IMG/VR virus record: IMGVR_UViG_3300018083_000009
Location: 1 to 55,573 of that record
Reading direction: 5' to 3' (one strand)
DNA length: 55,573 nucleotides
DNA from: a virus
Lineage: Duplodnaviria > Caudoviricetes
The notes below the pieces were generated by a model. The model was not told the DNA's origin. It made no database searches and saw only the letters and a list, made by a program, of their open reading frames with translations. A program made the translations under genes and the position numbers. Within the stretch, counting starts at the first letter, position 1. Each line of letters begins with the position of its first letter. This document shows positions 1 to 39,489 of the stretch, in pieces.

Positions 1-123
1 CGCGTGATCCAACAACCGCACTTGAAGTTGCAACGAAACAATACGTAGACGGAAAGGTTGGTGGCGTTGGTTATCTTCCGTTAACAGGTGGTAAATTAAC
101 TGGTCGTTTGAATGTCGATACTA
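1..123. repeat. 123-bp direct terminal overlap (identical to 55451-55573); circular assembly, unit genome ~55,450 bp
   Basis: Sequence 1-123 is identical to 55451-55573, and a reading frame continues through the join. Confidence 0.95.
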
Positions 124-1757: not shown

Positions 1758-1758
1758 C

Positions 1759-1956
1759 ATGGCTACGCTTAATGTTTCTATGCCGGAAGAAGAGTGGGTT
1801 AAAGTTCTTAACATGCTTGCAACGTTTCCGTTTAAGGATATCGCTTCAACAATGCAACAGATGCAACAGCAGTTGCAGATGCAAGTTGAACAAGCGAAAC
1901 AACAGCCTACAATGAAACAGCCCAATGGTGCCGAGGTTCATGCGCCAGGAGCGTAA
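1759..1956 (+). CDS. Small Gln-rich hypothetical protein between tail-fibre genes (possible fibre assembly factor)
   Basis: ATG 1759 preceded by AGGAG; position between two fibre genes. Confidence 0.55.
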   Translation: MATLNVSMPEEEWVKVLNMLATFPFKDIASTMQQMQQQLQMQVEQAKQQPTMKQPNGAEVHAPGA

Positions 1957-1961
1957 TTAAA

Positions 1962-4370: not shown

Positions 4371-4550
4371 ATGCAAGAAAAATCAATCGTCTACTTCATC
4401 GTTGCTTATCTGGCGTGTTGGCTTGTCGATCTAATTATTATTGTCGCAAGAGGACCAGTTTTAATCGACCCCATTTTGAAACTAATTATTGTTTTGGTTT
4501 GTTTGATCGTCATACTGATCGGCTTAGGTAAAGCACGCTGGTTGCTCTAA
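4371..4550 (+). CDS. Small two-TM membrane protein (holin candidate)
   Basis: Two hydrophobic stretches and a basic C-terminus; likely start MQEKS at 4371. Confidence 0.55.
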   Translation: MQEKSIVYFIVAYLACWLVDLIIIVARGPVLIDPILKLIIVLVCLIVILIGLGKARWLL

Positions 4551-4565
4551 CAAAGGACAAAACAA

Positions 4566-5618
4566 ATGCCTTCATGGTTCGATCGTTTTGGTGAAGAATG
4601 GGCTACTACTGGTTTAACAGATGATCCGACTAATGCACAAGCAGATGCCGGTTGGGCTTACATTGGACAAGCGCCACCTACTGTTGAACAATTCAATTCG
4701 ATGTTTCAATGGTCGGATGACAAAGACAATTGGCTCTATGGTCAGATTGGTAACGTAATCGCATCGGCAAATATGTTGCCAGACCCACTTGATTTGACTC
4801 AGTTGCTGCGAGCAATTAATTCTAAGTTCAAAATTAAATTGACTGCGCCTTATACTATATGGGCTGATTCAATTAATGGTAACGATAGCAATTTGGTTCC
4901 TAATCAGGGAACACCATTTAGAACGATTCAGAAATCAATTGATTGGGCGCTAGAGAATATTGAACCAGCGCATCAATGGGTTTATATTCAATTGCAACCC
5001 GGAACATATGAACCGGCAGTTTTAAGTGTTAGTTGGAATGGTGGACTTTTAATTCAAGGTGATACGTTAAATCCTCGAAACTATTTAATTAAAAATACCA
5101 ATGGTGGAGCATTAACGGCAGCATATTCCGCATGGTTTGCCGTGCAAGGAGTTTCTATAGAAGCGATTGGTCCTGATGTTGATTATGAATCTAACGGCAG
5201 CGGACTCAATGGCATTAATGCCGGAATCATTATTTATAAAGATGTTGCTTTTGGTCCATGTTCGCAATCACAAATGGGTGCATGGTCAGCTGGTCAAGTT
5301 TATTCATGGGGACCTAATATCAATTATTCTATTTACGGAAACGCAAGAATGCATATGATGTCTTATGTTGGTGGTATTTGCACTAATGTAAGAACACACG
5401 TAACGATTACAAATAACCCAATATATAGCTTAGGTTTTTCTTGTTGCACCACTGCTGGTTATATTCAAGCATGGGGTTCAACTTATACCGGAACTACAAG
5501 GGGACCGCGTGCTTATGCCGCCGCGTATGGAATCCAAAATCTGGCCGGAGTTTCACCAGATGTATTGTTTCCTGGTGATGCGCCAGCGCAAACCTTTAGC
5601 GGTGGCCTTTATACTTAA
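4566..5618 (+). CDS. Third tail fibre/receptor-binding protein, possibly with a beta-helix C-terminal domain
   Basis: N-terminal GWAYIGQAPPTVEQFN..DLTQLLRAI resembles baseplate-attachment domains; GNDSN..TPFRTIQK..IQLQPGTY resembles the start of a pectin-lyase-like fold. Confidence 0.65.
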   Translation: MPSWFDRFGEEWATTGLTDDPTNAQADAGWAYIGQAPPTVEQFNSMFQWSDDKDNWLYGQIGNVIASANMLPDPLDLTQLLRAINSKFKIKLTAPYTIWADSINGNDSNLVPNQGTPFRTIQKSIDWALENIEPAHQWVYIQLQPGTYEPAVLSVSWNGGLLIQGDTLNPRNYLIKNTNGGALTAAYSAWFAVQGVSIEAIGPDVDYESNGSGLNGINAGIIIYKDVAFGPCSQSQMGAWSAGQVYSWGPNINYSIYGNARMHMMSYVGGICTNVRTHVTITNNPIYSLGFSCCTTAGYIQAWGSTYTGTTRGPRAYAAAYGIQNLAGVSPDVLFPGDAPAQTFSGGLYT

Positions 5619-5635
5619 CAACAGGAGCGAAACAA

Positions 5636-5953
5636 ATGGGTGAGTTCACTGATCAAATGCGACACAAGTCATCGTTACTGGTAGAGAAAGAAATTGAAGA
5701 TGCCAGAAAAGAAAATCGCCCATTCATTCCGGCTTTGGTATTAGCTATTGGAACGTCTGTTAATCAAGACAAATGGATTGGTGATGCATTGCAACAAGCG
5801 CAAGAGGACAAAGAAATAGCACTTGGCAGGAGACCGCCAAGAATAGTTGTGCAACCGAATCCAGCTGTTTCAATATGGCAATCGGTTTGGAAGACGGCGC
5901 ACATGAATAACAATAGGGAACTCGGGCCAGGAGACCTTAGTAAAAAGAAATGA
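5636..5953 (+). CDS. Hypothetical protein
   Basis: ORF with AGGAG RBS in the operon. Confidence 0.6.
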   Translation: MGEFTDQMRHKSSLLVEKEIEDARKENRPFIPALVLAIGTSVNQDKWIGDALQQAQEDKEIALGRRPPRIVVQPNPAVSIWQSVWKTAHMNNNRELGPGDLSKKK

Positions 5954-6189
5954 TTCTCCTGGCACTGATATTTATTTCGGGAGTTGAGTTTATTGAATTG
6001 CATGGTCCAGATGGACAGCGTGCATTTTTAAATCCGCGGGCGATCAGTAGTTTACGCGAGCCGGTCAATCCAGACTTAAAACATTTTGCTAAAAGCGTGC
6101 ATTGCGTTGTGGTGACTACCAACGGAAAGTTTATTGCGGTAGTGGAAACCTGCCAAGAGATTCGTGATACGCTTGGGAAGAAGCCGTGA
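5950..6189 (+). CDS. Hypothetical protein, last gene of the late operon
   Basis: ATGA overlap with the upstream gene; hydrophobic N-terminus. Confidence 0.55.
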   Translation: MILLALIFISGVEFIELHGPDGQRAFLNPRAISSLREPVNPDLKHFAKSVHCVVVTTNGKFIAVVETCQEIRDTLGKKP

Positions 6190-6284
6190 TCCTGGAAACG
6201 TTGCAACTTCAAACCAGAAATTAAATTTAACTTTTTTTGCTTTATGTCAAATTCAAAACGCATGACTTTTGCACAAAAGAAGAC

Positions 6285-6330
6285 AAAAAAATCCCGGTAG
6301 ACGCGCTGTGTCTGCGTTGGTCTACCGGGT
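6285..6330 (-). terminator. Intrinsic terminator ending the leftward early operon
   Basis: CCCGGTAGAC...GTCTACCGGG stem followed by a T-run on the minus strand; lies where the two operons converge. Confidence 0.7.
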
Positions 6331-6362
6331 TGGCGAGGGATTCCATTGTTCCTTTCTGGTAA

Positions 6363-7382
6363 CTATTCTTTGATCGTATAATGTGACCGATGCGAAACGA
6401 AAGCATTTCGCATTTCTTCAGTTGCATTCACTAATGTATCGCGAATGAAACTTTTCTCACCGGTCTGGTAATGACGCCAGTGACCGATCCGCATATGCGG
6501 AATCGGACTGGCATGATGACCGCCTTGCGAGTCTTTGTTCCGCTCCTGGCGACGTTGGATTGCGGTTACATAGCCGGAACTATCAACTCGCCTGTAAGGC
6601 GGTATGCGAGACTTGCCACGTTTCATGCGCGCCTTGTTTAGACTCTCTTTAACCGTAACAATTTGAGTCTCGACGCCGCGCGTATTTAGTATTGAAAGCG
6701 CAACCATTAACGGCTCCAAAACATTTGATGCCGCTAAATCCATCATGCGTTTTTCGTTCCATTCCATTTTGTCAAACGGATCTTTATCCTTTACGCTATA
6801 GAAACGCATTGCGAATGGAATGACATTCAAGGTAGCATTCCTATCTCGCAACGATTCTGTCGCGAGAAAAGAAATGCGATTGCCAACAGTTAAACAATTG
6901 CCAACCGATTCGAGTCTGGTTCCTTCAAGTTCAACCGCTTCGAAGTCGATACAAATACCGTCACCAGAATTTGGAAACGGATTTATAAGATACGCATTCG
7001 TTACGACTTTTCTCAGTTCCAGAGACGGATTCTTTTCATCGCTCCAACTATGCAAGAAAATATATGGAGTCCGAAACGGATGTGCCATTGCGCCTTCAGA
7101 ATAAAGACGACCAACACGATGCGAAGTTTGTTTAATCATATCGTTAGGCCAATGACCAAAGTCGATCATTTGCCCACGATTGATTGCTTCTCGTAACATT
7201 TCAGCCATATGATTCAATTCTTGACTCGTTGGCATATAGGAATGATCTAATCCCGGTCCAGATGTAAGAGCATTACGCTCCGATATTTCGCGGAGTCGTT
7301 CTGGAGTCAGTATGAGACTTTCACTTTCACCAACCTCGATTCCGAATTGATCGTTACCGAGTGGTATTACTACATCTTCCAT
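6363..7382 (-). CDS. Conserved-type phage hypothetical protein (C-terminal HASP.PH.R.GHWR motif)
   Basis: 339-aa ORF with strong RBS; His/Arg-rich motif seen in phage proteins of unknown function. Confidence 0.7.
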   Translation of the reverse strand: MEDVVIPLGNDQFGIEVGESESLILTPERLREISERNALTSGPGLDHSYMPTSQELNHMAEMLREAINRGQMIDFGHWPNDMIKQTSHRVGRLYSEGAMAHPFRTPYIFLHSWSDEKNPSLELRKVVTNAYLINPFPNSGDGICIDFEAVELEGTRLESVGNCLTVGNRISFLATESLRDRNATLNVIPFAMRFYSVKDKDPFDKMEWNEKRMMDLAASNVLEPLMVALSILNTRGVETQIVTVKESLNKARMKRGKSRIPPYRRVDSSGYVTAIQRRQERNKDSQGGHHASPIPHMRIGHWRHYQTGEKSFIRDTLVNATEEMRNAFVSHRSHYTIKE

Positions 7383-7467
7383 TATTCCATTCCTTTCAGT
7401 TTCAGTTTCAGTCTAGCGTTCTGCTAGTGAAATGAGTTTAAATTTAAACTCATTCCATTAAGAGAAG

Positions 7468-8010
7468 CTATTTACTTTCGAACTTATAATGACCAATCGG
7501 ATCGTCAACCGCCATGAACGTTAAGGATTCGTATCCATCGGCAGGCATTAACTGACAGTTATACACGTTACCATCGCGATACAATAACGCCTTCTTGGTT
7601 TGTGGTCTGATGACCCTTATCTCTTTAGTCATCGGCAGCACCAGCAATTGATTCGTTATTGTATCAAGATATGGTTGGGCTTTGGCAGGGTCAAAGATAA
7701 TTACGGTAAACGATACCGTTGCATCATCGTCTTGATATGGCGTTATCAAGATGCCACATTGTTTCGGTTGCCAATCATCTAAACCCCAACCCGCTTTCCA
7801 CATACATTGATATGTCGAACAGGCAACGGGTTTACTATGTTGGATACCGCAACGTTTATCAAGATATGCTGGACCGCGTAGATGCTTGCATTTCGCGCCG
7901 GTATATTTCTTTAATTCATCGATACCAAGCCAAACGCAACATGCGGTGCATGATCCACATTGACGATTCGTTACCTGTTCGAACGGAATCTGTTCGATAC
8001 GCTTTTCCAT
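7468..8010 (-). CDS. CxxCxxCC (YkgJ-like) Zn/Fe-S cluster protein
   Basis: RQCGSCTACC...C..L....C.I...KP.AC..YQC pattern. Confidence 0.7.
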   Translation of the reverse strand: MEKRIEQIPFEQVTNRQCGSCTACCVWLGIDELKKYTGAKCKHLRGPAYLDKRCGIQHSKPVACSTYQCMWKAGWGLDDWQPKQCGILITPYQDDDATVSFTVIIFDPAKAQPYLDTITNQLLVLPMTKEIRVIRPQTKKALLYRDGNVYNCQLMPADGYESLTFMAVDDPIGHYKFESK

Positions 8011-8097
8011 TGTCCTATCATTCCTTTCGTTTCGTTTCTAGAACGGTGTTCTAGTGAAACCTGGCGGATCACCCGCCAGGAGACATTAAGACAACGT

Positions 8098-8292
8098 TTA
8101 ATAACCCCAACCACGTTCGTCTGCATCAGCGCAACGATTACAGATTACGTAATCAGGTCGAAGTCTGACTTTTCTTTCACAACGTAAACATTTCTTCCAC
8201 ACAGAAGTTCGTTGCACTTCCTTATAGAACTCAACGTCCTCTTCCGATTCGATCTTGTAGTGGCCAAAGTTGTCATCATAGTAAGTTGGCAT
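8098..8292 (-). CDS. Small Zn-ribbon hypothetical protein
   Basis: CLRC...CNRC pairs; likely start MPTYY. Confidence 0.6.
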   Translation of the reverse strand: MPTYYDDNFGHYKIESEEDVEFYKEVQRTSVWKKCLRCERKVRLRPDYVICNRCADADERGWGY

Positions 8293-8293
8293 G

Positions 8294-8512
8294 TTATTCG
8301 CTCCTGTAACCATGAAGCTGTTGCACAATCTGTTTGATATGTTTGTTCATCGAATCCAAAACAAACTTTTCATTCGGTTGTCCAACCTTCATCAAATGGC
8401 GAACGACTAATAACTCGATAAGTTTTTGTTGCGTGACTGGATCGTATTTCTCCAACAAGAGACTCAATCGATCTAGAAACGGTAACAGTTCTTCGCCTAA
8501 CGTTACAGTCAT
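8294..8512 (-). CDS. Hypothetical protein
   Basis: ORF tightly packed in the early array. Confidence 0.55.
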   Translation of the reverse strand: MTVTLGEELLPFLDRLSLLLEKYDPVTQQKLIELLVVRHLMKVGQPNEKFVLDSMNKHIKQIVQQLHGYRSE

Positions 8513-8692
8513 TTAGTTACACCTTTTGATTCGTTGGCCCATTGTCGTTTTGTAACTTACGCAACGGATAATCTTTCCGTTATCATCGCGAATTACAGAA
8601 TGACGATAACCAAACGTATCGGTTCGACTCGTTTCGTTATAGGACCAAGCTACTCCTGGCGTCATCACCAGGAGAACCAGCAACCATTTCAT
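8513..8692 (-). CDS. Small secreted hypothetical protein
   Basis: Likely start MKWLLVLLVMTPGVAWS (signal-peptide-like) after an AAAGGA RBS. Confidence 0.55.
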   Translation of the reverse strand: MKWLLVLLVMTPGVAWSYNETSRTDTFGYRHSVIRDDNGKIIRCVSYKTTMGQRIKRCN

Positions 8693-8790
8693 TTCATTGT
8701 CCTTTACAGTTTGAAGTTTAGGCCCGAGACGCAACCTTGCGCTCGTGAAACTAGCTTGCAAGCAAGCTAGTTCCAAGAAAGCAACGTTAG

Positions 8791-9174
8791 TTATACGTTG
8801 TTGTCCTCTTGTTTCGAGTGCAATACAAAATAACGTGGCGAATCATACGCGACTTTTCCTTCCGACCTCAGAATGGATAGTCGTGATGATGCCGTTCCTA
8901 TCGGTAGTTCTGCTACCTTAGCAAGTTCCCTGCCGGTCAACCCATCTTTACCAGCTGCTTCTAACGCCAGCATTACTTGTTGGGTCGCAACAGAAGCAGA
9001 CCGTTTGCGTTTGTGCTTGTCAGGACCACGCGGTTTCATCATTGGCTTAGATGCTGGCATCTTAACCAACATTTCACCGTAGACTTCGTAACGAATTTGC
9101 AACCTTGCAATCTCTTGTAAGAGATGATCTCGTTGCTCATGTAACCATTTCACTAAAGCATCGTATTCCATCAC
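8791..9174 (-). CDS. Winged-helix DNA-binding protein
   Basis: N-terminal coiled coil, basic linker, GLTGRELAKVAELPIGTASSRLSILRSEGKV wHTH pattern. Confidence 0.7.
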   Translation of the reverse strand: MMEYDALVKWLHEQRDHLLQEIARLQIRYEVYGEMLVKMPASKPMMKPRGPDKHKRKRSASVATQQVMLALEAAGKDGLTGRELAKVAELPIGTASSRLSILRSEGKVAYDSPRYFVLHSKQEDNNV

Positions 9175-9344
9175 TCTGACTCCTCAATCGGTTCATCCGA
9201 CCAGTAGTTAGAGTCCTCAAAGATATCGGCACGATAACGGCTTTTCTTTTCGAGTTCGCATTCATCGCAAACGTAGGTGCAGAAAATTCCCCTTGCATCA
9301 TACAAGGGAAAACGGATCATTCCGCTTCCACAAATACACTCCAT
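9171..9344 (-). CDS. Small Cys-containing hypothetical protein (57 aa), not in ORF track
   Basis: Manual translation MECICGSG...CTYVCDEC...; preceded by the conserved GAAAGGAATGGAATAATG RBS. Confidence 0.65.
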   Translation of the reverse strand: MECICGSGMIRFPLYDARGIFCTYVCDECELEKKSRYRADIFEDSNYWSDEPIEESE

Positions 9345-9433
9345 TATTCCATTCCTTTCCAGTTCGATTCGGTTGTCTAACAGAACGGTCTGTTAGTAAA
9401 ATGAGTGTGAACACTCATTTCATTAATAGAACG

Positions 9434-9754
9434 TCAGTCGCGTCCATCCTTTAGCATTTGGATTCTCTCTTCAAGCAAAACGATTTGTTGCTTTAACACA
9501 GTTGAAATTTCGACTTGTTGTTTCCACAACATTTGAAACCGTTGCACGCCCAATAGAAGAGCGGCATCGTTTTCAATCGCTACACTAACGAATTGACTAA
9601 AAAGTTTTCGTTCCTTTTTAGTCCATCGTGGATTGCCAGTTTCTAATCTTTCGATTAGTTCAAACAGCCCGTCAACAAAATCATTCGTCTCGCTAGCTAA
9701 AAAATCAGCAAATTTGCTGATCCTTTTGTGACGTTCCGTTTCGTCATCCATCAT
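9434..9754 (-). CDS. Hypothetical protein
   Basis: ORF with the conserved RBS repeat. Confidence 0.65.
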   Translation of the reverse strand: MMDDETERHKRISKFADFLASETNDFVDGLFELIERLETGNPRWTKKERKLFSQFVSVAIENDAALLLGVQRFQMLWKQQVEISTVLKQQIVLLEERIQMLKDGRD

Positions 9755-9847
9755 TCCATTCCTTTCAAGTTCGTTTCACTTAGGCTCCAACTTGCGTTGG
9801 TGCTTGCTCCTGGCGAGTTACCGCCAGGAGCCTGCATAAAAGCAAGT

Positions 9848-10077
9848 TTATTTCATAGTATCAAGGATATTCAACGCTCGTTTTAATGCTTCCGTCCACT
9901 CAATGTTGCCATGACACAACCATTTCGTTTCAGAGTTAACACGAGGTTGGAAAACCCATGCGCCATCTTTTTGATACAGTATCGCATCGTCATAATCCTT
10001 TTCAGCATCATAACGATATTCAATCGAAAACAGCTTGTCTTCGACCTGAGATTGAACTTGCAACCACATTGGTTTAG
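9848..10077 (-). CDS. Hypothetical protein (start uncertain)
   Basis: ORF fills the gap between 10074 and the hairpin element at 9850. Confidence 0.5.
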
Positions 10078-10439
10078 CCTCCGAAATAGAACGACCGTGC
10101 ATAGGCTAGCAAAGCTTCCTCTTGACGATCTGTAAGAGAAACATTCTGCCAATGAGTAAACCAGTTCTGACACTGCAAGAATGCAGTTTCAGGTTTGTTA
10201 TGGTCATTCAAGTCACCAGTGATTTGCACAGCCGGTCCACCCGTTGTCAAAACGATACGATACTCCATGGGTGGAGTCGTGTCGCTATAACAATGCCAGT
10301 TGGAGCGAACTTCAATCGATAACGGATCAGGACGATTATCATCCACTTCCGATTGAGTCATGTTTCCAAACTCTAACGATTCAATCTCTACAGCCCACGC
10401 AAGAGCCATTTCGACTGCGTTATCTTTGTCATCCATCAT
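10074..10439 (-). CDS. Hypothetical protein (LTTGGPA motif)
   Basis: ORF with the conserved RBS repeat. Confidence 0.65.
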   Translation of the reverse strand: MMDDKDNAVEMALAWAVEIESLEFGNMTQSEVDDNRPDPLSIEVRSNWHCYSDTTPPMEYRIVLTTGGPAVQITGDLNDHNKPETAFLQCQNWFTHWQNVSLTDRQEEALLAYARSFYFGG

Positions 10440-10540
10440 TCCATTCCTTTACAGTTCAAACAGGTTAAGTCACGTTCCTTGATTCATTCCGAATCAAGAA
10501 GAGTGCAACATCATATGATGTTGCAATCCTATTGATTAGG

Positions 10541-10813
10541 CTAGTCGATCTTTACAACGTGAACACCTTCGCAACGATAGACAACTTCACCGTTTATTGT
10601 GAAGGTGTCACCATCTTTCAAATGCTCATTGGTCTGATAAAGGTCATACAAGCACTCATGCATACGTTCATTATTCTCTCGTATCAAATCCATGTCGCCG
10701 TCTTTATAACGAACGAACAATAAAACTTGCATGGACTTAGATGCGCCAGAATATTTTAATTCCGAAACATAATAGTAACCGTGCGAGTCTTGCTCTAGTT
10801 TATATTCCATCAT
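10541..10813 (-). CDS. Hypothetical protein
   Basis: ORF with the conserved RBS repeat. Confidence 0.65.
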   Translation of the reverse strand: MMEYKLEQDSHGYYYVSELKYSGASKSMQVLLFVRYKDGDMDLIRENNERMHECLYDLYQTNEHLKDGDTFTINGEVVYRCEGVHVVKID

Positions 10814-10894
10814 TCATTCCTTTACTGTTTCGAGACTCTAACCATCTAGGCTAGACTGTTACTCCTGGCATACCGCCAGGAGTAACCGTATAGG

Positions 10895-11570
10895 CTAGAA
10901 CTCAATCGTAATCGTTACGCTAGCATCACGAACCTTGATCGATCCGGATATTTTCGAAGTATCAACGTTCAACGCGTCGGCAATCAGGTTCCGCAGGTCG
11001 GAACCCTGGAAAGCTTTGCGGGCTGCTTTGCCGATAGGCTCTGCAATCGCCTCAGAGGCATCGCCAGAGGCTACAGGCTTGCCAGTTTTACGTAACCCCT
11101 TGCCCACGATCTTTGCCGCCACAGCATAGCTTGGAGCGGCCTTGTAGGATTGCCTCGCAATCGGGGTGAAGTCATACCGCCCGAGTCGGATTTGGGCATC
11201 GGTCAGAGTCGGAAAAAAGAAATGCGAGGTTTGCCGTTGAGCACGCCAAGCATTCCGTTTCGTCATCAGAACATAATGAGAAATGTTGAGAGAGGCTCCC
11301 ATCATGATTCCGTTGTTATCGGTAGCGTTACAATCCCGCACGATACCGATAAGAAACGCGGAATTGTGTGGCTCGGTTGCACCGTTAACCGTTGCGTTCT
11401 GGCAGCAAACGACATACTTGACGCTTTCCGCGCGAGTCAACTTGAACGGTAGCGCAGTCGTTACGACTCCGCTTTTGATGATTTGTTCTGGCGACTCGCC
11501 AGTGTAAACCATCATTACGGAACCGAGGTCGTTATTCATCTTTACCATTTGTTTCACTTTCATTTTCATC
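10895..11570 (-). CDS. Hypothetical protein (~220 aa; start uncertain)
   Basis: Long ORF; the true start is probably downstream of the hairpin at 11582-11650. Confidence 0.6.
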
Positions 11571-11647
11571 ACTAGATTGTGTCTGGCCACTTGATCGACT
11601 CCAGAAAGATGCAACATCGTATTGATGTTGCATCCTTATGTTTTCGA

Positions 11648-12031
11648 TTAGCCTTTGATTGCGTCACGTAAACGATCGTTGAATGCCAGGACTGCACTCA
11701 AATATTCCTCGTGCGAACTGACCGTTTCGGCAAGTTCTGCAAGATCGATACCGGATAGGCTAGAGTCCAGATCGTTAACTCTCGATTCGATTCCATCATG
11801 ATCGTCGATTTTGGAATCGATATCGTCAAGTCTGCCATCCATGTCGGCAATATCTGACTCCATGGATTGCATACGAACCAGAAGCGAATCGTTGGTATTC
11901 TCTAACGATTCGATCTTGTCCTGCATCATTCCGATAACGTCCCGGAGTTCCCGGATCGTTTGTTTCAGTTCTGGAAGCAAGTCCAGGGGACTCGTGCCAT
12001 CGAACCGAATGGTTACGTTTTCGAATTGCAT
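11648..12031 (-). CDS. Acidic coiled-coil hypothetical protein
   Basis: Heptad pattern; D/E-rich. Confidence 0.65.
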   Translation of the reverse strand: MQFENVTIRFDGTSPLDLLPELKQTIRELRDVIGMMQDKIESLENTNDSLLVRMQSMESDIADMDGRLDDIDSKIDDHDGIESRVNDLDSSLSGIDLAELAETVSSHEEYLSAVLAFNDRLRDAIKG

Positions 12032-12132
12032 TGTTCTACTTTCATTTCAGTTTCATTAGGTTAGTGTCTGGCCACATGATCGACTCCAGAAAACTGCAAC
12101 GTTGCAAGAACGTTGCAATTTTATGCTTTCGA

Positions 12133-12345
12133 TTAGCCTTTAGTCTTTAACCATTTACCATCAACTTGCTTCTGATATTGTTGGCCTTTACCAGCACCTA
12201 AACCAATGCCGAATTTTTTGTGACACTTAGGACACAAATTCGCCCACGGTCCAAACTTAGTGCGACCATCAATAAATGTCGTTGTGATAACGCATTTATT
12301 CAGATCACATTCGGTTGGTTCTAAACCAATCCAATACTTTTCCAT
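12133..12345 (-). CDS. Small Cys-containing phage hypothetical protein
   Basis: CDL..C...DGRTKFGPWANLCPKC...GLG.GKGQ pattern; conserved RBS. Confidence 0.65.
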   Translation of the reverse strand: MEKYWIGLEPTECDLNKCVITTTFIDGRTKFGPWANLCPKCHKKFGIGLGAGKGQQYQKQVDGKWLKTKG

Positions 12346-12443
12346 AGCTCACTTTCCTTTTCAGTTCGTTTCAGATTCCAAACCATTTTCATGTTTTGGT
12401 GCTTGCTCCTGGCCTACCGCCAGGAGCAATCATAAAAACACGA

Positions 12444-12677
12444 TTAAGCAATTACGTAACCGTTATTTTCACCTTCGCCTTTAAATTCGATTACGTCATT
12501 ATGTGTAATCGCATCGTGACCGCGGAATCCAATCATGACAGGGATTCGAAACTCGTTAGGCTTCCGAACCCATGTTATAGTGCGACCGTTACGACGCACC
12601 TTCCAAAATCTTCCGTTACGCATACGGACATACATTCTGTCAGCGTCAAGTGCTGACTCAATTTCATTAAGTTCCAT
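12444..12677 (-). CDS. Hypothetical protein
   Basis: ORF with the conserved RBS repeat. Confidence 0.65.
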   Translation of the reverse strand: MELNEIESALDADRMYVRMRNGRFWKVRRNGRTITWVRKPNEFRIPVMIGFRGHDAITHNDVIEFKGEGENNGYVIA

Positions 12678-12764
12678 AGCTCACTTTCCTTCAGTTCGTT
12701 TCAGTTATCAAACGCGATGTTGCGTTTGTAGAATGAGTGCTCGCACTCATTCCATAAAAGCAAC

Positions 12765-12998
12765 TTAACCCATATAGAGCAACGTTCCGTTTAACGTTCC
12801 GAAAACATTACTATACATTTCAGCCTCTTTCGGAGTCGCTTCCCGTTCCAAATTGGAAACGAGAATTTGTGCTTCCTTTTTCGTTATCCTAATCCAACGT
12901 TCCGACGTTCCGAAACGCGCTTGAATGTATACCACTTTGGCAACATTCAAAGCGCATTGCAAAGCGTCAACCGTTGTTAGATTATGATGACTCGACAT
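12765..12998 (-). CDS. Hypothetical protein
   Basis: ORF; likely start MSSHH after AAGGAA. Confidence 0.6.
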   Translation of the reverse strand: MSSHHNLTTVDALQCALNVAKVVYIQARFGTSERWIRITKKEAQILVSNLEREATPKEAEMYSNVFGTLNGTLLYMG

Positions 12999-13081
12999 TT
13001 TCACATTCCTTTTCATTTCGTTTCAGGTTCTAGCGTATGCTAGTAAATGCATCCCATGGGATGCATTCATTAGGATAAGCT

Positions 13082-13249
13082 TTAGACCATATCTTCGCGC
13101 ATTGTAAAAGTTACCTTCTGAGAATGATTCAACAATCTCAGAAGCTTGTTAGCCTCTTGCGAGGTGACAGGTTCATTGCAGTTGTTATACAGGCTGATTA
13201 AAGCCTGCTCTAGCAATGCGATTTGATATTGTGTCAACTTAGTTACCAT
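13082..13249 (-). CDS. First gene of the early array (55 aa), not in ORF track
   Basis: Manual translation MVTKLTQYQIALLEQALISLYNNCNEPVTSQEANKLLRLLNHSQKVTFTMREDMV; followed by a hairpin element. Confidence 0.6.
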   Translation of the reverse strand: MVTKLTQYQIALLEQALISLYNNCNEPVTSQEANKLLRLLNHSQKVTFTMREDMV

Positions 13250-13505
13250 TTCATTTCACTTTCATTACTAGGGTTATCACTCTGTATTTATCCGGGCTTG
13301 TGACCGGCATAGGCTACATTACAAGGCGACTCTTAAAGCTAAAGCTTTATCGCGTATTTACGCTAAAGAGTCGCATTGAACCTAGTTTCGAAACTGAAAG
13401 GAACAATGGAACCTTGCCAATGGTGAGCGCCAGGATTCGCTTTTATCTATTCTGGCGCTTGCACTCTATCCCTAGGGGATAGCCTAGCAAGGTTAGCTTA
13501 TTCGA

Positions 13506-13516
13506 TTGTCAAAGAG
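13506..13516 (-). promoter_or_regulatory. boxA-like antitermination site (CTCTTTGACAA)
   Basis: Close match to rrn boxA (GCTCTTTAACA) in the leader of the leftward operon. Confidence 0.55.
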
Positions 13517-13795
13517 TGGGACTCCGCTTTCCCCAAAAATTCGAAACGGTAACGACTCTTCGCGTTTTATGCTTGCGTTACCTAGCGTTTCAATTTGCCA
13601 CCGCATTGTGGGCTTGAGTCTTACCTTTGCCGGTAGATCAGTCGGTTAAACACTTAATCCATTGGAATCGTCGGCGCTGATTCGTAAGACTCGGATCGTT
13701 GGTCAGGCTAGTTAATCCAAGCCCATAACAGGCTCTAAATGGCGACTCATTGTTTAACCCTATGCGCCAAGCGCAAAGGTAAGTGGGGGAGCGGA

Positions 13796-13812
13796 TTCAG
13801 TTTTCAAAGATC
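13796..13812 (-). promoter_or_regulatory. boxA-like site (GATCTTTGAAAACTGAA) preceded by a boxB-like hairpin (13816-13854)
   Basis: Matches the rrn-leader form of boxA; hairpin AGGGAAGCCC/GGGCTTCCCT lies directly upstream on the minus strand. Confidence 0.6.
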
Positions 13813-13881
13813 AGAGGGAAGCCCGGTAGGCTAGGCTAGGCTCGGGGCTTCCCTTGTAGTCTAGTAGATAGTAGAAATTGT

Positions 13882-13920
13882 TATATAGGGATTAGTTTTC
13901 GAATTACAAGGGGTTATTTT
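13882..13920 (-). promoter_or_regulatory. Putative sigma70 early promoter (TTGTAA-16-TATATA) with upstream A-tract
   Basis: Minus strand reads AAAATAACCCCTTGTAATTCGAAAACTAATCCCTATATAAC. Confidence 0.5.
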
Positions 13921-14021
13921 ACTTAGAATGTCGATTTTCTTACTGTCAGCTTACTAAGGATTTACAAGGGTTTACTGCTAATACTGGCGAGTTCTCTTAT
14001 ATTTCCTTAGCAATGCCATGG

Positions 14022-14073
14022 TTTGACATAAGGCAAGATCCACCCCGCAGGGTAAGGCTTGCCTTATGTCAAA
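14022..14073. repeat. Perfect 16-bp inverted repeat TTTGACATAAGGCAAG / CTTGCCTTATGTCAAA
   Basis: Direct inspection. Confidence 0.8.
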
Positions 14074-14270
14074 ATTGCCTTTTGACAAGCTTCCCTGGCG
14101 AGCCGATAGGCTAGCCATGGCTCTAGAGCCATGGGACCATGGCCGTGGCGCGGCTCAGAGGCATCCCACAGGCCGCCTAGGCCGCTCCTGCTAGGGGGAT
14201 AGCAGGAGACTCCGTTTGGCCAGTTCTGATAAAAGTCAATTGGGACGAATCCCAATTGCGAGACACGATT

Positions 14271-14283
14271 TGCTCTTTGATAA
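14271..14283 (+). promoter_or_regulatory. boxA-like site (TGCTCTTTGATAA) for the rightward operon, preceded by hairpin 14237-14258
   Basis: Match to TGCTCTTTAACA with an upstream stem-loop. Confidence 0.45.
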
Positions 14284-14295
14284 TCTCATATGATC

Positions 14296-14356
14296 TAGCT
14301 GCTAGATAGCTGCTATCTTCTAGATAGCTGCTAGATAGCTGCTAGATAGCTGCTAG
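14296..14356. repeat. Five TAGCTGCTA palindromic units, mostly at an 11-bp period
   Basis: Copies start at 14296, 14307, 14325, 14336 and 14347. Confidence 0.85.
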
Positions 14357-14695
14357 CTTCCACTAGCTATCCGATAGCTACCGCTAGCAAGCAAAACGCA
14401 TGGCCGCTCGTTTACCATTCCGAAATGGGAACGATATTGATTGACCAATAGCTGGCATTCACTATTCCGAAAACGGAACGATGTTTGACATAGCTATGGC
14501 GTATGATGGTTCCAGACGCGGAACTGTGTTATCCATCCATAGAGTTGACCCTTTGCTCCTGGCGTTGGGACCAACGCTACCGCGATTCTATAATTTTTGC
14601 AAATATGCCGATTCAAGCTTGCGCCAATCCGCCAGGAGAGTAAGTTAGCTAGGCCGATGATTCGAATCGGTAACAAATCCCCATATAGGTAAGTT

Positions 14696-15502
14696 ATGTC
14701 AGATGACGTGCAAACTTTGCAACGGAGTCCGGATGATTCTGGCTCCGATGTGGCCGCAATGGAAAATGAAAACATTGCGGAGGAAACCACAAGAAAACGT
14801 CGCCGCTTCCGACCAGATGAAATCAGGCTCGCGAATAAATTCGTTTCACTCGCGGAACCGGGCACGCCAATTGAGTTTAGTGAACTCGAAACGGAACTGA
14901 AACGGGCTGTTTTACCTAACAGACAAACTCGTTTGGTTGACCGCGGAATCCTCGAAGTTGATTACGACGAGGAAACGGGATTGCTTAGGACGGTAACTGT
15001 TAATACCGAAATGCTTAAAGAGTATGAGTGGGATTTGATTCCGATTAAGGAACCAAAAGTTTCCGCTCGTGTAACGTTGAAAGGTGAACCACGGCAACGT
15101 AAACCGCGCAACATGCTTGCCGATCCGAAATATAAAATCAGCATGTTGGCGGAAAAGAATCCGAAACGTCCAGGCTCGCACTCGTGGTTTAATTGGGAAA
15201 ATTGTTATCACGATGGCGAATCAGTTCCGGATTACCTATCGCAAATGAATTATCCGCGTATGCTTATCACATCAAAAGGAACTTATTTTAACGGACCATC
15301 GACTCTGTTTATCGAACAAGATTTGAAGGCCGGTCATATTGGTATCTATGATTCAACGATGCCGACCACGCTAGATGATGGCAGCAAAAATCCTGCTATC
15401 TGGGTTAAGTTTGAAGACCTGAGTCGTATCATGGTTGACGACCCTGAGCCTGATGATGACGATCCCGAAAATGGCGAATCAGCCGAGACCCCAACAGAGT
15501 AA
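14696..15502 (+). CDS. Hypothetical protein, first gene of the rightward early/middle operon
   Basis: 268-aa ORF with basic patches and an acidic tail. Confidence 0.7.
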   Translation: MSDDVQTLQRSPDDSGSDVAAMENENIAEETTRKRRRFRPDEIRLANKFVSLAEPGTPIEFSELETELKRAVLPNRQTRLVDRGILEVDYDEETGLLRTVTVNTEMLKEYEWDLIPIKEPKVSARVTLKGEPRQRKPRNMLADPKYKISMLAEKNPKRPGSHSWFNWENCYHDGESVPDYLSQMNYPRMLITSKGTYFNGPSTLFIEQDLKAGHIGIYDSTMPTTLDDGSKNPAIWVKFEDLSRIMVDDPEPDDDDPENGESAETPTE

Positions 15503-15644: not shown

Positions 15645-16910
15645 ATGACTTATGAGTTCCACCGCTATGCCAACATCTTTCCACTCATGCACGAGAACTC
15701 GAACGAGTTTCTCAACTTGAAAGATAGTCTAAAGCAAACCGGAATGATTGTTCCGGTGCTGTTATTTGGCGATAAGATTCTAGATGGTCGCAATCGTTAC
15801 CGATGCCATTTAGAAGATGAAACAATAGAGTTGAAAACAGAACAATTTAATGGCACCGACGAAGAAGCTTTAAATTATTCGTTGGCGTTGAATAACACAA
15901 GGCGGCACTTAGTAGAAGGTCAGCGGGCTTTAGCGGCAATCAGATTGTCAGAAGTTCAATCCGGAATGAAAACGATTGAAGGTCAAAAATGGGCGTCTGA
16001 AATATTTGGTGTAAGTCTGTCACTGGTTCGCATGGCGTTTGATATTACCAGATCGCATCATAGTGAAAAGAATCAATTACTTGAAATGATTGAATTAGAT
16101 GATATCGCAATTAGTGCGGCGCATAACATTCTAAAGAATTTACCGCCTGAGAAATGGGAACAGGCGGCGCTATCCGATAAGAATGCGAAACAATGGATCA
16201 AAGAAGTTAAGCGCAACGACAACGAACTTAAGTTTGCGAACAAAACAGTAGCGGCGAATCGGGCACTCGAAAACGATACGATGTTATATGGAGTTATTTA
16301 TATCGATCCACCATGGAGGTTCGAAGTTCGATCTGAGAATGGAATGGATCGCAGTGCTGAGAATCATTATCCAACCATGACTCTTGATGACATACGCGGA
16401 ATGAAAATTCCCGCTGCTGATGATTGTGTTATGTTCTTGTGGGCAACCGTGCCGCACTTAAATAACGCAATCGAAATATTGGAAGGTTGGGGCTTCACTT
16501 ATAAGTCAGCTTATTTCTGGCATAAAACGAAACCGGGCTTAGGGTATTGGTCCGCCAACACAATGGAAGTTTTGTTGCTAGGTGTGAAAGGTGAAATTCC
16601 TGCTCCACTACCGGAACAAAGAATGGATCAAGTCATTAAAGCAGAACAAGGTAAACACAGTGAGAAACCGGAGGTATTTGCCGATGGTATAACTAAGATG
16701 TTTCCTAACGTTGCTAAAGTAGATATGTTTGCACGTAAGCGGAGTCATAAGGGAGATAATTGGTATTACCATGGAAACGAAGTTGGAGAAGAGTCAGAGG
16801 AAACCACCGCAGAAACTAAAAATAGAAAACCCCGCAATGGTAACGGCAACGGAAGAAAGAAAGCCGCGGAAATCGAATCAAGCTCAGAACAAGAAGAAAC
16901 TCCCCAGTGA
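15645..16910 (+). CDS. ParB/Srx-like domain fused to an MT-A70-family N6-adenine methyltransferase
   Basis: N-terminal FP.M...L..SLK..G...PV....ILDGRNRYR...N..RRHL (ParB-like); C-terminal IYIDPPW...HYPTM..MFLWAT...HSEKPE..DMFAR (MT-A70). Confidence 0.85.
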   Translation: MTYEFHRYANIFPLMHENSNEFLNLKDSLKQTGMIVPVLLFGDKILDGRNRYRCHLEDETIELKTEQFNGTDEEALNYSLALNNTRRHLVEGQRALAAIRLSEVQSGMKTIEGQKWASEIFGVSLSLVRMAFDITRSHHSEKNQLLEMIELDDIAISAAHNILKNLPPEKWEQAALSDKNAKQWIKEVKRNDNELKFANKTVAANRALENDTMLYGVIYIDPPWRFEVRSENGMDRSAENHYPTMTLDDIRGMKIPAADDCVMFLWATVPHLNNAIEILEGWGFTYKSAYFWHKTKPGLGYWSANTMEVLLLGVKGEIPAPLPEQRMDQVIKAEQGKHSEKPEVFADGITKMFPNVAKVDMFARKRSHKGDNWYYHGNEVGEESEETTAETKNRKPRNGNGNGRKKAAEIESSSEQEETPQ

Positions 16911-24127: not shown

Positions 24128-24158
24128 AACCCGCCAGGAGTTCTCCTGGCGGGTTTTC
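24128..24158 (+). terminator. Intrinsic terminator built from two inverted CGCCAGGAG copies
   Basis: AACCCGCCAGGAG-TT-CTCCTGGCGGGTTTT. Confidence 0.8.
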
Positions 24159-24174
24159 CTTAAAGGGATGACAA

Positions 24175-26174: not shown

Positions 26175-26716
26175 CAATTATAGTCTTTGACACGGAGACC
26201 ACGGGGCTTTTAGGTCCAATGGCAATGGGTGTTGAACTGCAACCACATTGTATCGAGTTCCATGGTATCAAGTTAAATTTGGAACTTGAAGTAATTGATA
26301 TGATGTCGTTTAGATGCAAGCCACCAGTGCCAATTAGTGAAGGTGCGATTCGTGTCAATGGCATAACGAATGAGATGCTTGTTAATGAAAAACCATTTGC
26401 TTATTTCTTTACTGGTTTAGCTGAGTTTTTTACTGGTTCGCTCCTGGCGGTAGGCCACAACATCATGTTTGATAAAATGATTTTATGGTATGAATTGGTT
26501 CGTCTCAATATGACATTAAGTTTTCCGTGGCCCATGGGATCGATATGCACCGCTGAAACGTGTTCGAAACAATTGGGTTATCGTCAAACCTTAACAGATA
26601 TGCATGAACGCTTGTTTGGCACTGGTTTCACTGGCGCGCATACCGCATCAGGTGATTGCGCTATTACAATGAAATGTTTTGTTGAGTTTGTGCGACGTGG
26701 AGTCATTACGTTGTGA
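26171..26716 (+). CDS. DEDDh 3'-5' exonuclease (DnaQ/epsilon-like)
   Basis: FDTETTG, GHNIMFD and AHTASGD motifs. Confidence 0.9.
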   Translation: MTIIVFDTETTGLLGPMAMGVELQPHCIEFHGIKLNLELEVIDMMSFRCKPPVPISEGAIRVNGITNEMLVNEKPFAYFFTGLAEFFTGSLLAVGHNIMFDKMILWYELVRLNMTLSFPWPMGSICTAETCSKQLGYRQTLTDMHERLFGTGFTGAHTASGDCAITMKCFVEFVRRGVITL

Positions 26717-27411: not shown

Positions 27412-27414
27412 GTT

Positions 27415-28536: not shown

Positions 28537-28696
28537 GTGCGAATGTCATCAATTGTGAGATTTGGCCTTGCATATGTCAAGTGGATGACGGTAGGCTGAA
28601 GAAAATCCCCTCCTGGCGTTTCTGACACGCCAGGAGGGTAAGATTTAGCATCGGGGGCAGATACTAAAACAACCGCCAACTTCACTGGAGTAAAGC

Positions 28697-39479: not shown

Positions 39480-39489
39480 GGGAAACGAA

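Follow-up and report, generated by a model that had tools for sequence, protein, structure and literature searches.

Genome organization and the early operon

The stretch of DNA analyzed in this study (the window, 55.6 kb) is the whole and complete genome of a phage, for which the cultured-phage collection gave no match when searched with the window DNA. Seventeen small genes on the minus strand constitute its early operon. None of these 17 genes matched a Pfam family above the curated cut-off; 14 of the 17 proteins were without a family match at the thresholds used, the other three gave weak or unannotated matches, and any of them may be a dedicated nuclease. A canonical intrinsic terminator closes the operon 3' of the 339-aa gene, and a second canonical hairpin-plus-U terminator of the phage is found at 24128-24160. 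Within the operon, single genes or tightly coupled blocks of two to three genes are bounded by twelve elements (E1 to E12), each of which comprises an apical stem, its continuation into an extended hairpin, and a second, competing hairpin (H2).

6363..13249, minus strand: early operon, 17 small genes (ORF list and Pfam scan)
6288..6335, minus strand: canonical intrinsic terminator, 10-bp GC-rich stem and seven U (read from the sequence)
13274..13325, minus strand: Twister-P1-like self-cleaving ribozyme candidate (Rfam RF03160, 51.3 bits, E 2.3e-9, 9-kb scan)
13029..13086, minus strand: E1, extended hairpin 13086-13029 (23 bp), apical stem 13067-13046, H2 13043-13030
12709..12764, minus strand: E2, extended hairpin 12764-12719 (19 bp), apical stem 12752-12731, H2 12728-12709
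12378..12443, minus strand: E3, extended hairpin 12443-12389 (22 bp), apical stem 12429-12403 (CTCCTGGC family), H2 12399-12378
12067..12133, minus strand: E4, extended hairpin 12133-12079 (21 bp), apical stem 12117-12095 (TGCAAC family), H2 12090-12067 (weak, no better than shuffles)
11582..11652, minus strand: E5, extended hairpin 11652-11589 (24 bp), apical stem 11634-11608, H2 11605-11582
10837..10899, minus strand: E6, extended hairpin 10899-10845 (22 bp), apical stem 10886-10858 (CTCCTGGC family), H2 10855-10837
10476..10540, minus strand: E7, extended hairpin 10540-10489 (21 bp), apical stem 10525-10504, H2 10500-10476
9784..9848, minus strand: E8, extended hairpin 9848-9789 (23 bp), apical stem 9831-9806 (CTCCTGGC family), H2 9803-9784
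9377..9439, minus strand: E9, extended hairpin 9439-9379 (24 bp), apical stem 9420-9399 (AATGAGT family), H2 9396-9377
8725..8791, minus strand: E10, extended hairpin 8791-8729 (26 bp), apical stem 8772-8749, H2 8745-8725
8038..8098, minus strand: E11, extended hairpin 8098-8042 (20 bp), apical stem 8080-8060 (8 bp), H2 8054-8038
7408..7470, minus strand: E12, extended hairpin 7470-7414 (24 bp), apical stem 7454-7431 (AATGAGT family), H2 core 7427-7413 in the fold 7430-7408

Structure of the intercistronic elements

An earlier, sequence-only reading of this DNA had described twelve two-state hairpins of one architecture, and all twelve were present at the sites claimed, on the minus strand. 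Perfect hairpins of at least 9 bp number 23 in the whole genome, against 0-3 per shuffle in 10 shuffles; the array holds 11 of the 23, and the stem of the remaining element is 8 bp. The apical stems alone contribute -8 to -21 kcal/mol and fall into the exchangeable families that had been proposed (AATGAGT type 3, TGCAAC type 3, CTCCTGGC type 4, and two singletons); E5 is related in sequence to E4. When the 20-nt flanks were folded onto the apical stem, with the 5' flank shuffled 300 times per element as control, an imperfect extended hairpin of 19-26 bp (state A) was obtained in 12/12 elements. The gain from the lower stem was -8.2 to -18.4 kcal/mol (mean -12.5) with a mean z of -2.5, and 0 to 46 of the 300 shuffles, depending on the element, were equally good. 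In every element its outermost pair is offset by -3 to +3 nt from the first nucleotide of the upstream stop codon, as expected from the claim that the hairpin starts there. The lower stems have about 27 single-base interruptions spaced 3-5 nt apart, and the unpaired C residues reported for the 3' arm account for 22 of these (U.C 13, A.C 6, C.C 3).

H2 shares 4-10 nt with the 3' arm of the lower stem in 12/12 elements, but its fold is statistically weaker (mean z -1.55 for H2 alone), and in E4 it is no better than shuffles; the strongest H2, of 8-10 bp, belongs to E7. The first unpaired residue of the 3' arm is a C, 10-15 nt off the loop, in 8/12 elements; in most of those eight this C is base 1 or 2 of H2 as read from the folds, E7 being less clear. 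An RBS and ATG follow the hairpins as described, the start codon lying 23-36 nt past the end of H2 (with 12998 taken as the start codon after E1), and the leaders between H2 and the RBS are A/G-rich and U-poor.

The covariation set included eight of the twelve elements, E4-E7 being left out since their flanks could not be aligned. Compensatory changes were present in 17 of 21 pairs, in agreement with the view that structure is kept over sequence, and 87.3% of cells were paired in comparison to 63.7% in shuffles (0/500 as high) and 35-42% with the partner slid. Nearly no unpaired residue is conserved across the twelve elements save single C residues, and no Rfam family was matched by them in narrow scans (E up to 10). 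Modules of the same architecture and of unrelated sequence, ten in number, were also found in L006, a relative with a 72% identical polymerase (20-26 bp, mean z -3.4, 4-11 shared nt). In view of the shuffle controls, the compensatory changes and these L006 modules, the structure of the elements is real and selected. State A was stabler on the sense strand in only 6/12 window elements and in 0/10 L006 elements, because an A.C mismatch in the sense RNA becomes G.U on the antisense strand; the strand test thus gives sense RNA no advantage, whereas the count of G.U versus A.C in the window elements (16 vs 7) points the opposite way.

Ribozymes and modules in the same slot of related phages

The Twister-P1-like candidate lies in the leader, 24 nt 5' of the first early start codon (13249). 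Its score of 51.3 bits is below the gathering score of 67.2, P3 is absent and P1 is weak. The remaining 12 of the 13 modules of the window are without a known ribozyme. In L006, a type III hammerhead with a complete core occupies the position of this candidate. L053 has seven hammerhead-form motifs, five of which are directly 3' of a CTCCTGGCG-type hairpin, and at its 7596 junction a hairpin of the CTCCTGGCG family stands alone, with neither ribozyme nor H2. L054 has a twister-P5 above the Rfam gathering score as well as type III and type I hammerheads. Upstream of the gene that follows E12 in the window, L053 carries a hammerhead module, and L054, L087, L089 and L092 carry hairpin modules that are free of a ribozyme. 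The intergenic slot is therefore probably a cleavage slot, judged from the ribozymes in the window leader, L006, L053 and L054. The activity of the hammerhead-form motifs is putative, and the 10.1-11.1 pair is U.U in 11 of 16 of them, a pair that was rejected in the published screens as described in PMC3088659.

No lower stem is seen in hairpins with a hammerhead behind them (n=10), the mean gain being -5.3 kcal/mol at a z of +0.33. The helix is extended to about two turns in the ribozyme-free modules only, and the ribozymes follow a short hairpin. The module geometry varies across the clade, because in type C, the widespread ribozyme-free module of the relatives, the first bulge is 7 bp below the loop and the competing pairing is weaker (mean z -1.6). 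Narrow scans (E up to 10) of an L006 element and of the type C module within L054 gave no Rfam match. The refolding logic of the modules is also present in a genuine ribozyme, the type I hammerhead of L054, where the partner of the 3' strand of stem I is repeated further downstream and this second copy can pair with the 3' strand instead.

Proposed processing of the early mRNA

The twelve elements most likely mark the cuts of a long early mRNA into single-gene pieces, since the same slot holds self-cutting ribozymes in related phages. We assign a probability of roughly one half to the reading that the mRNA is processed at these elements by a double-strand-specific nuclease, host RNase III being the probable enzyme; no RNase III encoded by the phage turned up in the set of scanned proteins. 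We infer the cleavage itself, the enzyme, the position of the cut and the protective role of the hairpin in the following model. The elements would punctuate a single early mRNA of about 7 kb made by the host polymerase. In state A, the sequence from the upstream stop codon pairs with nucleotides 3' of the perfect apical stem to give a helix of 19-26 bp, broken every 3-5 bp by single mismatches, mostly a C on the 3' arm, whereas in state B the 3' arm of the lower stem pairs with the next 5-10 nt to form H2. A double-strand-specific endonuclease, most likely host RNase III, would bind state A and cut the 3' arm where the helix is first interrupted, at a distance of 11-14 bp from the loop. The apical stem would stay on the upstream mRNA as a 3' hairpin that blocks 3' exonucleases; after the cut, the weak mismatched lower stem would dissociate, and the released 3' arm would refold into H2, the first base of which would be the formerly unpaired C. 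The downstream mRNA would then carry a flush 5' hairpin, a U-poor unstructured leader and the RBS.

The earlier proposal of programmed processing into single-gene mRNAs is consistent with the ribozyme context, the RNase III geometry and the covariation, and the cleavage in it is presumed. RNase III substrates span about two helical turns (Pertzev and Nicholson 2006, PMC1540722), and the same source describes that internal loops limit the enzyme to a cut in one strand which leaves a protective 3' hairpin, that the minimum distance from cut to loop is 11 bp, and that a U.C pair adjoins the scissile bond in T7 R1.1. The module geometry fits these published rules, which are those of the E. coli enzyme and may not be those of the host's; U.C is the commonest interruption in the lower stems of the window. 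The unbroken apical helix is at least 11 bp in 10/12 elements. In E7 and E11 it runs for 8-9 bp before the first interruption, and this was counted against the RNase III model. Also counted against it were the H2 of E4, which does not exceed shuffles, the strand test and the non-uniform geometry in the clade.

Alternative explanations

The modules may instead remain uncut and serve as passive insulators or stabilisers, with ribosome termination toggling the two states and decoupling or tuning the translation of neighbours, which we regard as rather unlikely. The apical hairpin would halt 3' exonucleases entering after random cuts, and the structured spacer would shield the untranslated gap from Rho and RNase E. 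The A/G-rich, U-poor leaders and the lone CTCCTGGCG-family hairpin of L053, with no ribozyme and no H2, agree with this, and the 5' arm lies within 3 nt of the stop in 12/12 elements, so that a terminating ribosome must open it. A ribosome-triggered switch, as was suggested earlier, is geometrically possible because the 5' arm begins at the stop codon, but the RBS is hidden in neither state, and pairing between the 5' arm and the RBS was not above chance in the elements. Moreover, a barrier requires neither a mismatched lower stem reaching two turns nor an H2 starting at the first unpaired C, and the self-cleaving ribozymes that occupy the same slot in relatives have cleavage as their sole known activity.

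Twister-sister, pistol and hatchet were discovered through guilt-by-association, and the two-state modules of the window, L006 and type C may by the same logic represent one or more new classes of self-cleaving ribozyme. The neighbourhood is rich in twister and hammerhead in the same slot, the narrow scans gave no Rfam match, the flanks are strongly conserved within a genome while the apical stems vary, and unpaired residues recur. Known small ribozymes, however, require a conserved unpaired core or a pseudoknot, whereas the twelve window elements have nearly no conserved unpaired residue but single C residues, and their architecture is common to at least three unrelated sequence families. Most motifs near ribozyme-associated genes, as described in PMC11061315, were not proved to be ribozymes, and a new ribozyme class is improbable here.

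At the DNA level, the elements, as hairpins or as mere repeats, could be recombination sites that shuffle early-gene cassettes in the manner of attC or T4 PeSL. The early arrays are mosaic: the genes shared with L006 occur in the order 2, 5, 15, 3, 8-9, 7, 11, 14, 17, distant relatives share just 1-4 of the 17 genes, and the module-bounded two-gene block 8-9 is intact in both the window and L006. Modules are also homogenised in one genome and different among genomes, and sense RNA was not favoured in the strand test. The cassette-exchange idea of the earlier reading is weak, as the scanned proteins included neither an integrase nor another recombinase, and several breakpoints, among them those upstream of gene 15 and around gene 11, coincide with tight gene junctions that have no element. 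Two features belong to RNA, the fixed register to the stop codon and the RBS and the sense orientation of the ribozymes in the slot, and the attC R' consensus fits 1/12 elements by eye. Cassette exchange as the primary role is highly improbable; gene shuffling by homologous recombination between the repeats may occur as a by-product.

That the elements are terminators or attenuators grading operon transcription is hardly credible, because the operon end has a canonical hairpin with a U-run, as does 24128-24160, while 11/12 elements lack the U-run, and no U follows H2 either, although the hairpins are strong, the three-segment alternative pairing resembles an attenuator and one element (E7) was flagged as terminator-like by the sense-strand scan.

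Comparison with known systems

The modules resemble T7-type RNase III sites and phage ribozyme arrays. The T7 early RNase III signals (R0.3 to R1.3, with R1.1 as the model substrate) sit between the cistrons of a host-transcribed early polycistronic mRNA. The window elements are likewise intercistronic in an early polycistronic mRNA, for which host transcription is proposed here, and like the T7 signals they fold into irregular hairpins, some two helical turns long, that are interrupted near their midpoint; U.C, which is found at the scissile bond of R1.1, is frequent in them, and one cut on the 3' side would leave a protective 3' hairpin, as in T7-type sites. Unlike the T7 sites, to which they have no sequence relationship, the interruptions are periodic 1x1 mismatches instead of one asymmetric internal loop, the array has 12 sites of predicted cleavage in 6 kb, and the 3' arm has the sequence to form a second, alternative hairpin; we know of no such refolding arm described for T7 sites.

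Clustered hammerheads flank single prophage genes and were proposed to give gene-length mRNAs (Perreault et al. 2011, PMC3088659), and twister, hammerhead and pistol are associated with phage genes (PMC4604425, PMC6765202). Clear cases of such arrays are the relatives L053 (the seven hammerhead-form motifs) and L054 (twister-P5 with type I and III hammerheads). The window similarly has an element between each gene or short block of a long phage transcript, and a twister-like leader, but in 12/13 of its modules a two-state hairpin replaces the ribozyme; no description of a ribozyme-free substitute was found in the portions of the phage-ribozyme literature retrieved by term. RAGATH motifs are also structured RNAs of unexplained function in ribozyme-rich, phage-like neighbourhoods, three having been shown to be ribozymes and the other 33 being of unknown function according to PMC11061315, but no Rfam RAGATH match was obtained for the window, L006 or L054 type C modules in narrow scans (E up to 10). 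With integron attC sites and T4-type PeSL the elements share their place as repeats at cassette boundaries just after stop codons, in mosaic arrays, with structure kept over sequence. They differ from attC in having mismatches instead of extrahelical bases, no R-box consensus by eye and no accompanying integrase, and the promoter half of PeSL is missing, because none of the six sigma-70-like promoter matches on the sense strand lies inside an element.

If the proposed processing is true, the modules and a host enzyme would together do the job that is done in related phages by self-acting hammerhead and twister modules.

Early operon and its genomic setting

With its 55,573 bp and direct terminal repeats, the window is a complete virus record; it codes for a family A DNA polymerase, helicases, a primase-helicase, a terminase, a portal and a major head protein, together with myovirus tail and baseplate proteins. 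Among about 55 of its proteins scanned with Pfam and PHROGs, there was no RNA polymerase, RNase III or integrase. The early region has no DNA match in the cultured-phage collection, and the best protein matches to cultured phages are of 37-39% identity. On the plus strand, 26713-28104 and 15645-16910 hold two adjacent genes for D12-class N6-adenine DNA methyltransferases and a third methyltransferase-like gene beside the polymerase. A 274-aa protein coded among the structural genes (39406-40230, plus strand) has a C-terminal PEP-CTERM motif (Pfam PF07589, E 3e-5). This motif is an exosortase sorting signal, and its presence would point towards a Gram-negative host that has an exosortase system.

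The early genes run from 13249 to 6363, all on the minus strand, and are preceded by a 1.4-kb repeat-filled non-coding stretch. The latter (13250-14700) separates the divergent early (minus) and replication (plus) genes, carries tandem 11-nt CTAG-containing units at about 14290-14400 along with many GC-rich inverted repeats and sigma-70-like sites, and is probably a promoter, operator or origin region. At the other end, the operon closes with a canonical hairpin followed by seven U, the single terminator of this strand-uniform array. None of the 17 early proteins reached the curated cut-off of any Pfam family, and an unrecognised phage nuclease may be among them. Three features of the operon are used below.

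Features of the early operon in the window
13274-13325, minus strand: candidate twister-P1-like self-cleaving ribozyme in the leader (Rfam 51.3 bits, E 2e-9, below the gathering score)
8098-8292, minus strand: CxxC zinc-ribbon early protein of 64 aa, with 52-71% identity in very diverse phage contigs
6363-7382, minus strand: last early gene, 339 aa, coding for the early protein best conserved in the clade (39-49% identity in six relatives)

The 339-aa protein has no Pfam family, and a Foldseek search of its AlphaFold model (pLDDT 65.7, pTM 0.71) against the PDB returned nothing at E <= 0.001. Used as a query for related prophages in bacterial genomes, it found none. When the 64-aa protein served as bait, 40 loci were obtained (L010-L049), in which hairpin arrays were absent except on the contig of L006, a relative described below; this gene therefore travels independently of the modules.

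The twister-like candidate lies 24 nt before the first early start codon, lacks P3 and has a weak P1. The window has no motif of type III hammerhead form, and a narrow Rfam scan of the twelve intergenic elements (1281 nt, E up to 10) returned nothing beyond noise resembling miRNA precursors, and no known ribozyme. The RAGATH covariance models of Rfam had no match on these elements either. Only narrow scans are counted here as negatives, because long ones miss small ribozymes: a 7.6-kb scan overlooked the hammerhead of L006 that a 141-nt scan detected. The 'CUGAAAC' in the window leaders can be speculated to be a hammerhead relic.

Structure of the intergenic elements

The twelve elements (E1-E12, 13086 down to 7408) are present where the sequence-only reading had placed them and agree with its description, each placed after a stop codon and ahead of the following ribosome-binding site in a single array. 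The genome has 23 perfect hairpins of at least 9 bp as compared to 0-3 in each of ten shuffles; 11 of these are inside the array and the stem of the twelfth element is of 8 bp. When the 20 nt 5' of the apical stem were allowed to pair only with the 20 nt 3' of it, an extended helix of 19-26 bp was obtained in all twelve elements (state A), with a gain of 8-18 kcal/mol over the apical stem alone and a mean z of -2.5 for the lower stem (300 shuffles of the 5' flank per element). The hairpin had been proposed to start at the upstream stop codon, and the outermost pair is indeed at most 3 nt from the first base of that codon in every element. The uninterrupted apical helix measures, from E1 to E12 in order, 11, 11, 11, 14, 14, 12, 9, 11, 11, 13, 8 and 13 bp, so that the first interruption falls 11-14 bp below the loop in ten elements and 8-9 bp below it in two (E7 and E11).

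Below this point the lower stem is interrupted every 3-5 bp by single 1x1 mismatches. An unpaired C on the 3' arm, as claimed earlier, is found in 22 of about 27 interruptions (U.C 13, A.C 6, C.C 3). The same 3' arm has 4-10 nt in common with the small downstream hairpin (state B, here H2) in all twelve elements, thus the two pairings exclude each other and the proposed two-state nature holds. On the further claim that refolding begins at the unpaired C, eight elements have a C, 10-15 nt from the loop, as the first residue of the 3' arm left unpaired, and in most of these eight it is read as base 1 or 2 of H2. From E1 to E12, the first unpaired 3'-arm residue is at about 13043, 12728, 12402, 12091, 11606, 10857, 10503, 9805, 9396, 8746, 8059 and 7428. 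H2 ends 23-36 nt before the start codon and is the weaker half of the evidence, with a mean z of -1.55 and with the H2 of E4 no better than chance.

Covariation, which the sequence-only reading had put forward as one check, was found in an alignment of eight elements, E4-E7 being omitted as their flanks do not align. Changes on both sides were seen in 17 of the 21 pairs, and 87.3% of the cells were paired; shuffles gave 63.7%, none of 500 reaching the observed value, and sliding the partners gave 35-42%. Strand asymmetry gave no support for a sense RNA, as the sense strand has the more stable state A for 6 of 12 elements of the window and 0 of 10 modules of L006. With 16 G.U pairs to 7 A.C mismatches, the tally for the window leans away from the sense strand; the A.C and C.C mismatches may be explicable by the need of those C residues to pair in H2. 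A role of the 5' arm as an anti-RBS was rejected, as its duplex energies with the ribosome-binding region are not above those of shuffles (mean z -0.34, with E11 as the one exception).

The CTCCTGGCG/CGCCAGGAG hairpin motif also recurs outside the array on the plus strand (24128-24160, 28608-28638 and 39520-39544). One of these copies has its arms swapped and carries a U-run, and is likely a terminator; another, lacking a U-run, precedes a gene for 334 aa, and the third is within the signal-peptide-like start of a coding region.

Modules of the related phages

Besides L006, a clade of phage contigs with comparable arrays was gathered, with the conserved last protein of the array as bait and then with the shared ribosome-binding motif as a DNA pattern. 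In L006, an IMG/VR contig whose polymerase is 72% identical, the same array is found with 10 modules which are unrelated in sequence to those of the window and identical in plan. Each consists of the stop codon, a lower stem (z -3.4) interrupted by A.C, C.C and G.A mismatches, a variable apical stem and an H2 of 7 bp having 4-11 nt in common with the lower stem. Since the plan is repeated with unrelated sequence, an accident of one genome is ruled out. The leader of L006, at the place of the twister-like candidate of the window, holds a type III hammerhead with every core nucleotide (Rfam 36.4 bits in the 141-nt scan).

Another relative, L053, has seven motifs of type III hammerhead form within 4.6 kb (4380-8970, plus strand). 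Five of them are directly behind a hairpin of the CTCCTGGCG type, the family that also supplies four apical stems of the window, and one of the other two is in the leader. Their stems I and III covary, stem I is closed by a conserved GUGU loop, and five of the seven have U.U as their 10.1-11.1 pair. Across all loci 16 distinct motifs of this form were found with G.C (3), G.U (2) or U.U (11) at 10.1-11.1, so most of them are core-adjacent variants and are regarded as candidate ribozymes. In L054, type I and type III hammerheads, a twister-P5 and a type C module, the commonest ribozyme-free hairpin of the relatives, are mixed in one array (1-2750, plus strand).

Features of the L054 array
30-84, plus strand: type III hammerhead
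463-521, plus strand: twister-P5, above the Rfam gathering score, with a CTCCTGGCG-type hairpin as its P1
about 858-943, plus strand: type I hammerhead, the CUGAUGA core of which includes the upstream stop codon
about 1435-1500 and 2095-2170, plus strand: two structured spacers of another kind
2626-2690, plus strand: type C hairpin module

Downstream of the type I hammerhead lies a second copy of its stem I partner, making the same kind of refold possible, and this hammerhead alone gave a match, a weak one, to RAGATH-1-hammerhead. Type C is known from 15 distinct copies (L076, L077, L084, L087, L089, L090, L092 and L054). Directly behind the stop codon it forms a bulged hairpin of 18 bp, adjoined by a hairpin of 5-8 bp; the copies show compensatory changes, and the outer pairing competes with the small hairpin (mean z -1.6). 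The 5' arm contains the heptamer GGAAUGG, the same as the ribosome-binding site of the clade, so that, judged by sequence, pairing of the 3' arm with the RBS is conceivable too. In geometry, type C is unlike the window modules, of which the AATGAGT-type elements look like type C derivatives.

Before the conserved last gene, the module of L053 is a hammerhead, and that of the window, L006, L054, L087, L089 and L092 is a ribozyme-free hairpin. Where a hammerhead lies behind the hairpin (n = 10), the lower stem is not significant, with a mean gain of -5.3 kcal/mol and a z of +0.33. A length of about two helical turns is reached by the hairpin only in modules that lack a ribozyme, as in the window (z -2.5) and L006 (z -3.4).

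Proposed processing of the early transcript

Substrates of E. coli RNase III are described as having typically two helical turns (about 20-22 bp), possibly as stacked helices, and internal loops or bulges as able to confine the enzyme to one phosphodiester, the remaining 3' hairpin guarding against 3'-5' exonucleases (Pertzev and Nicholson 2006, PMC1540722). The same source gives 11 bp as the shortest well-reactive helix between the cut and the tetraloop, and places a U.C pair next to the scissile bond in the natural T7 R1.1 site. Like the T7-type signals, the window elements lie between the cistrons of a polycistronic mRNA, all twelve have the two-turn helix (19-26 bp), and U.C, the pair beside the scissile bond of R1.1, is also their commonest interruption, although these rules are those of E. 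coli and may not be those of the host of the window.

From the window geometry and the published RNase III rules, we propose that the cut in state A would fall at the first interruption, on the 3' arm. Dissociation of the mismatched lower stem would follow, and the released 3' arm would fold into H2, in which the formerly unpaired C pairs with G. The upstream RNA would thereby end in a flush hairpin and the downstream RNA would start with one. Twister-P5 cuts immediately 3' of its P1 and the type III hammerhead immediately 5' of its stem I hairpin; by analogy, the ribozyme modules would give the same end result as the proposed cut. Of the earlier suggestion that the array is processed into single-gene mRNAs, the structural part and the setting are borne out by the elements themselves and by the ribozymes in the same slot of the relatives, and the cleavage part is drawn from structure and context. 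Processing is a plausible and the preferred reading, held at about even odds.

As a minority explanation it is reasonable that the modules are passive insulators, switched between their states by the terminating ribosome, but this explains neither the ribozymes in the slot of the relatives nor the restriction of the two-turn helix to modules without a ribozyme. That the modules are themselves a new self-cleaving ribozyme is possible at slim odds, as no unpaired nucleotides are conserved across the three unrelated sequence families. DNA-level cassette exchange, which the sequence-only reading had suggested as a possible second role, is quite unlikely as the main function: gene order is mosaic among the relatives, but breakpoints occur also where the module is absent and no recombinase was found among the approximately 55 proteins scanned, which leaves the idea weak. 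Genes may still be shuffled secondarily when the repeats recombine.

Intrinsic terminators had been excluded earlier and this was upheld, since U-runs are missing from the elements, a sense-strand terminator scan flagged only one of the twelve, and canonical terminators occur elsewhere in the genome, with a true one at the operon end. Integron attC sites have an integron integrase in the vicinity and R''/L'' and L'/R' boxes with a GTTRRRY core; this core, judged by eye, fits one of the twelve elements, no tyrosine recombinase is among the proteins scanned, and the interruptions are 1x1 mismatches rather than extrahelical bases, so attC was rejected. T4-type PeSL elements, in which a stem-loop is combined with an early promoter, were likewise rejected, as none of the six sense-strand promoter-like sites is inside an element (12 such sites on both strands vs 17 expected).

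Implications for phage ribozymes

Clusters of hammerheads flanking single prophage genes have been reported and proposed to cut long phage transcripts into gene-length mRNAs (PMC3088659, 2011), and twister, hammerhead and pistol ribozymes are associated with phage genes (PMC4604425, PMC6765202). The review PMC6765202 treats the role of many small self-cleaving ribozymes in bacteria and phages as an open question, and unexplained RNA motifs of ribozyme-type neighbourhoods are catalogued as RAGATH (PMC11061315). No description of ribozyme-free two-state hairpins replacing ribozymes in the same slot was met in the parts of this literature searched, the supplementary motif sets of which may hold one, or motifs like type C.

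A far-reaching and, in our estimate, improbable proposal is that the early operons of the clade are built with interchangeable RNA 'punctuation cassettes' for one slot, namely hammerhead I and III, twister P1 and P5 and at least three ribozyme-free two-state designs, all of which would leave a 3' hairpin upstream and a structured 5' end downstream. In its boldest form the window type, the L006 type and type C would self-cleave, with the refold from lower stem to H2 as a product-release switch, and the modules would be a new ribozyme class; in the less bold form they would be enzyme-dependent equivalents of ribozymes.

The clade amounts to a natural swap experiment, in which the same slot has a hammerhead or twister in one phage and a ribozyme-free hairpin in another, the latter being of RNase III-substrate size and built so as to rearrange into a 5' hairpin. 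Cleavage of the hairpin modules, if it occurs, would reveal what the ribozymes do in these arrays: they would cut the long early mRNA into end-protected units, the cutter being the RNA itself or a host enzyme. For synthetic operons, the modules would further offer ready-made insulators of small size in which product release is built in. The less bold form, if true, would be a direct demonstration of the purpose of phage ribozymes, and the system gives real experimental leverage on that purpose.
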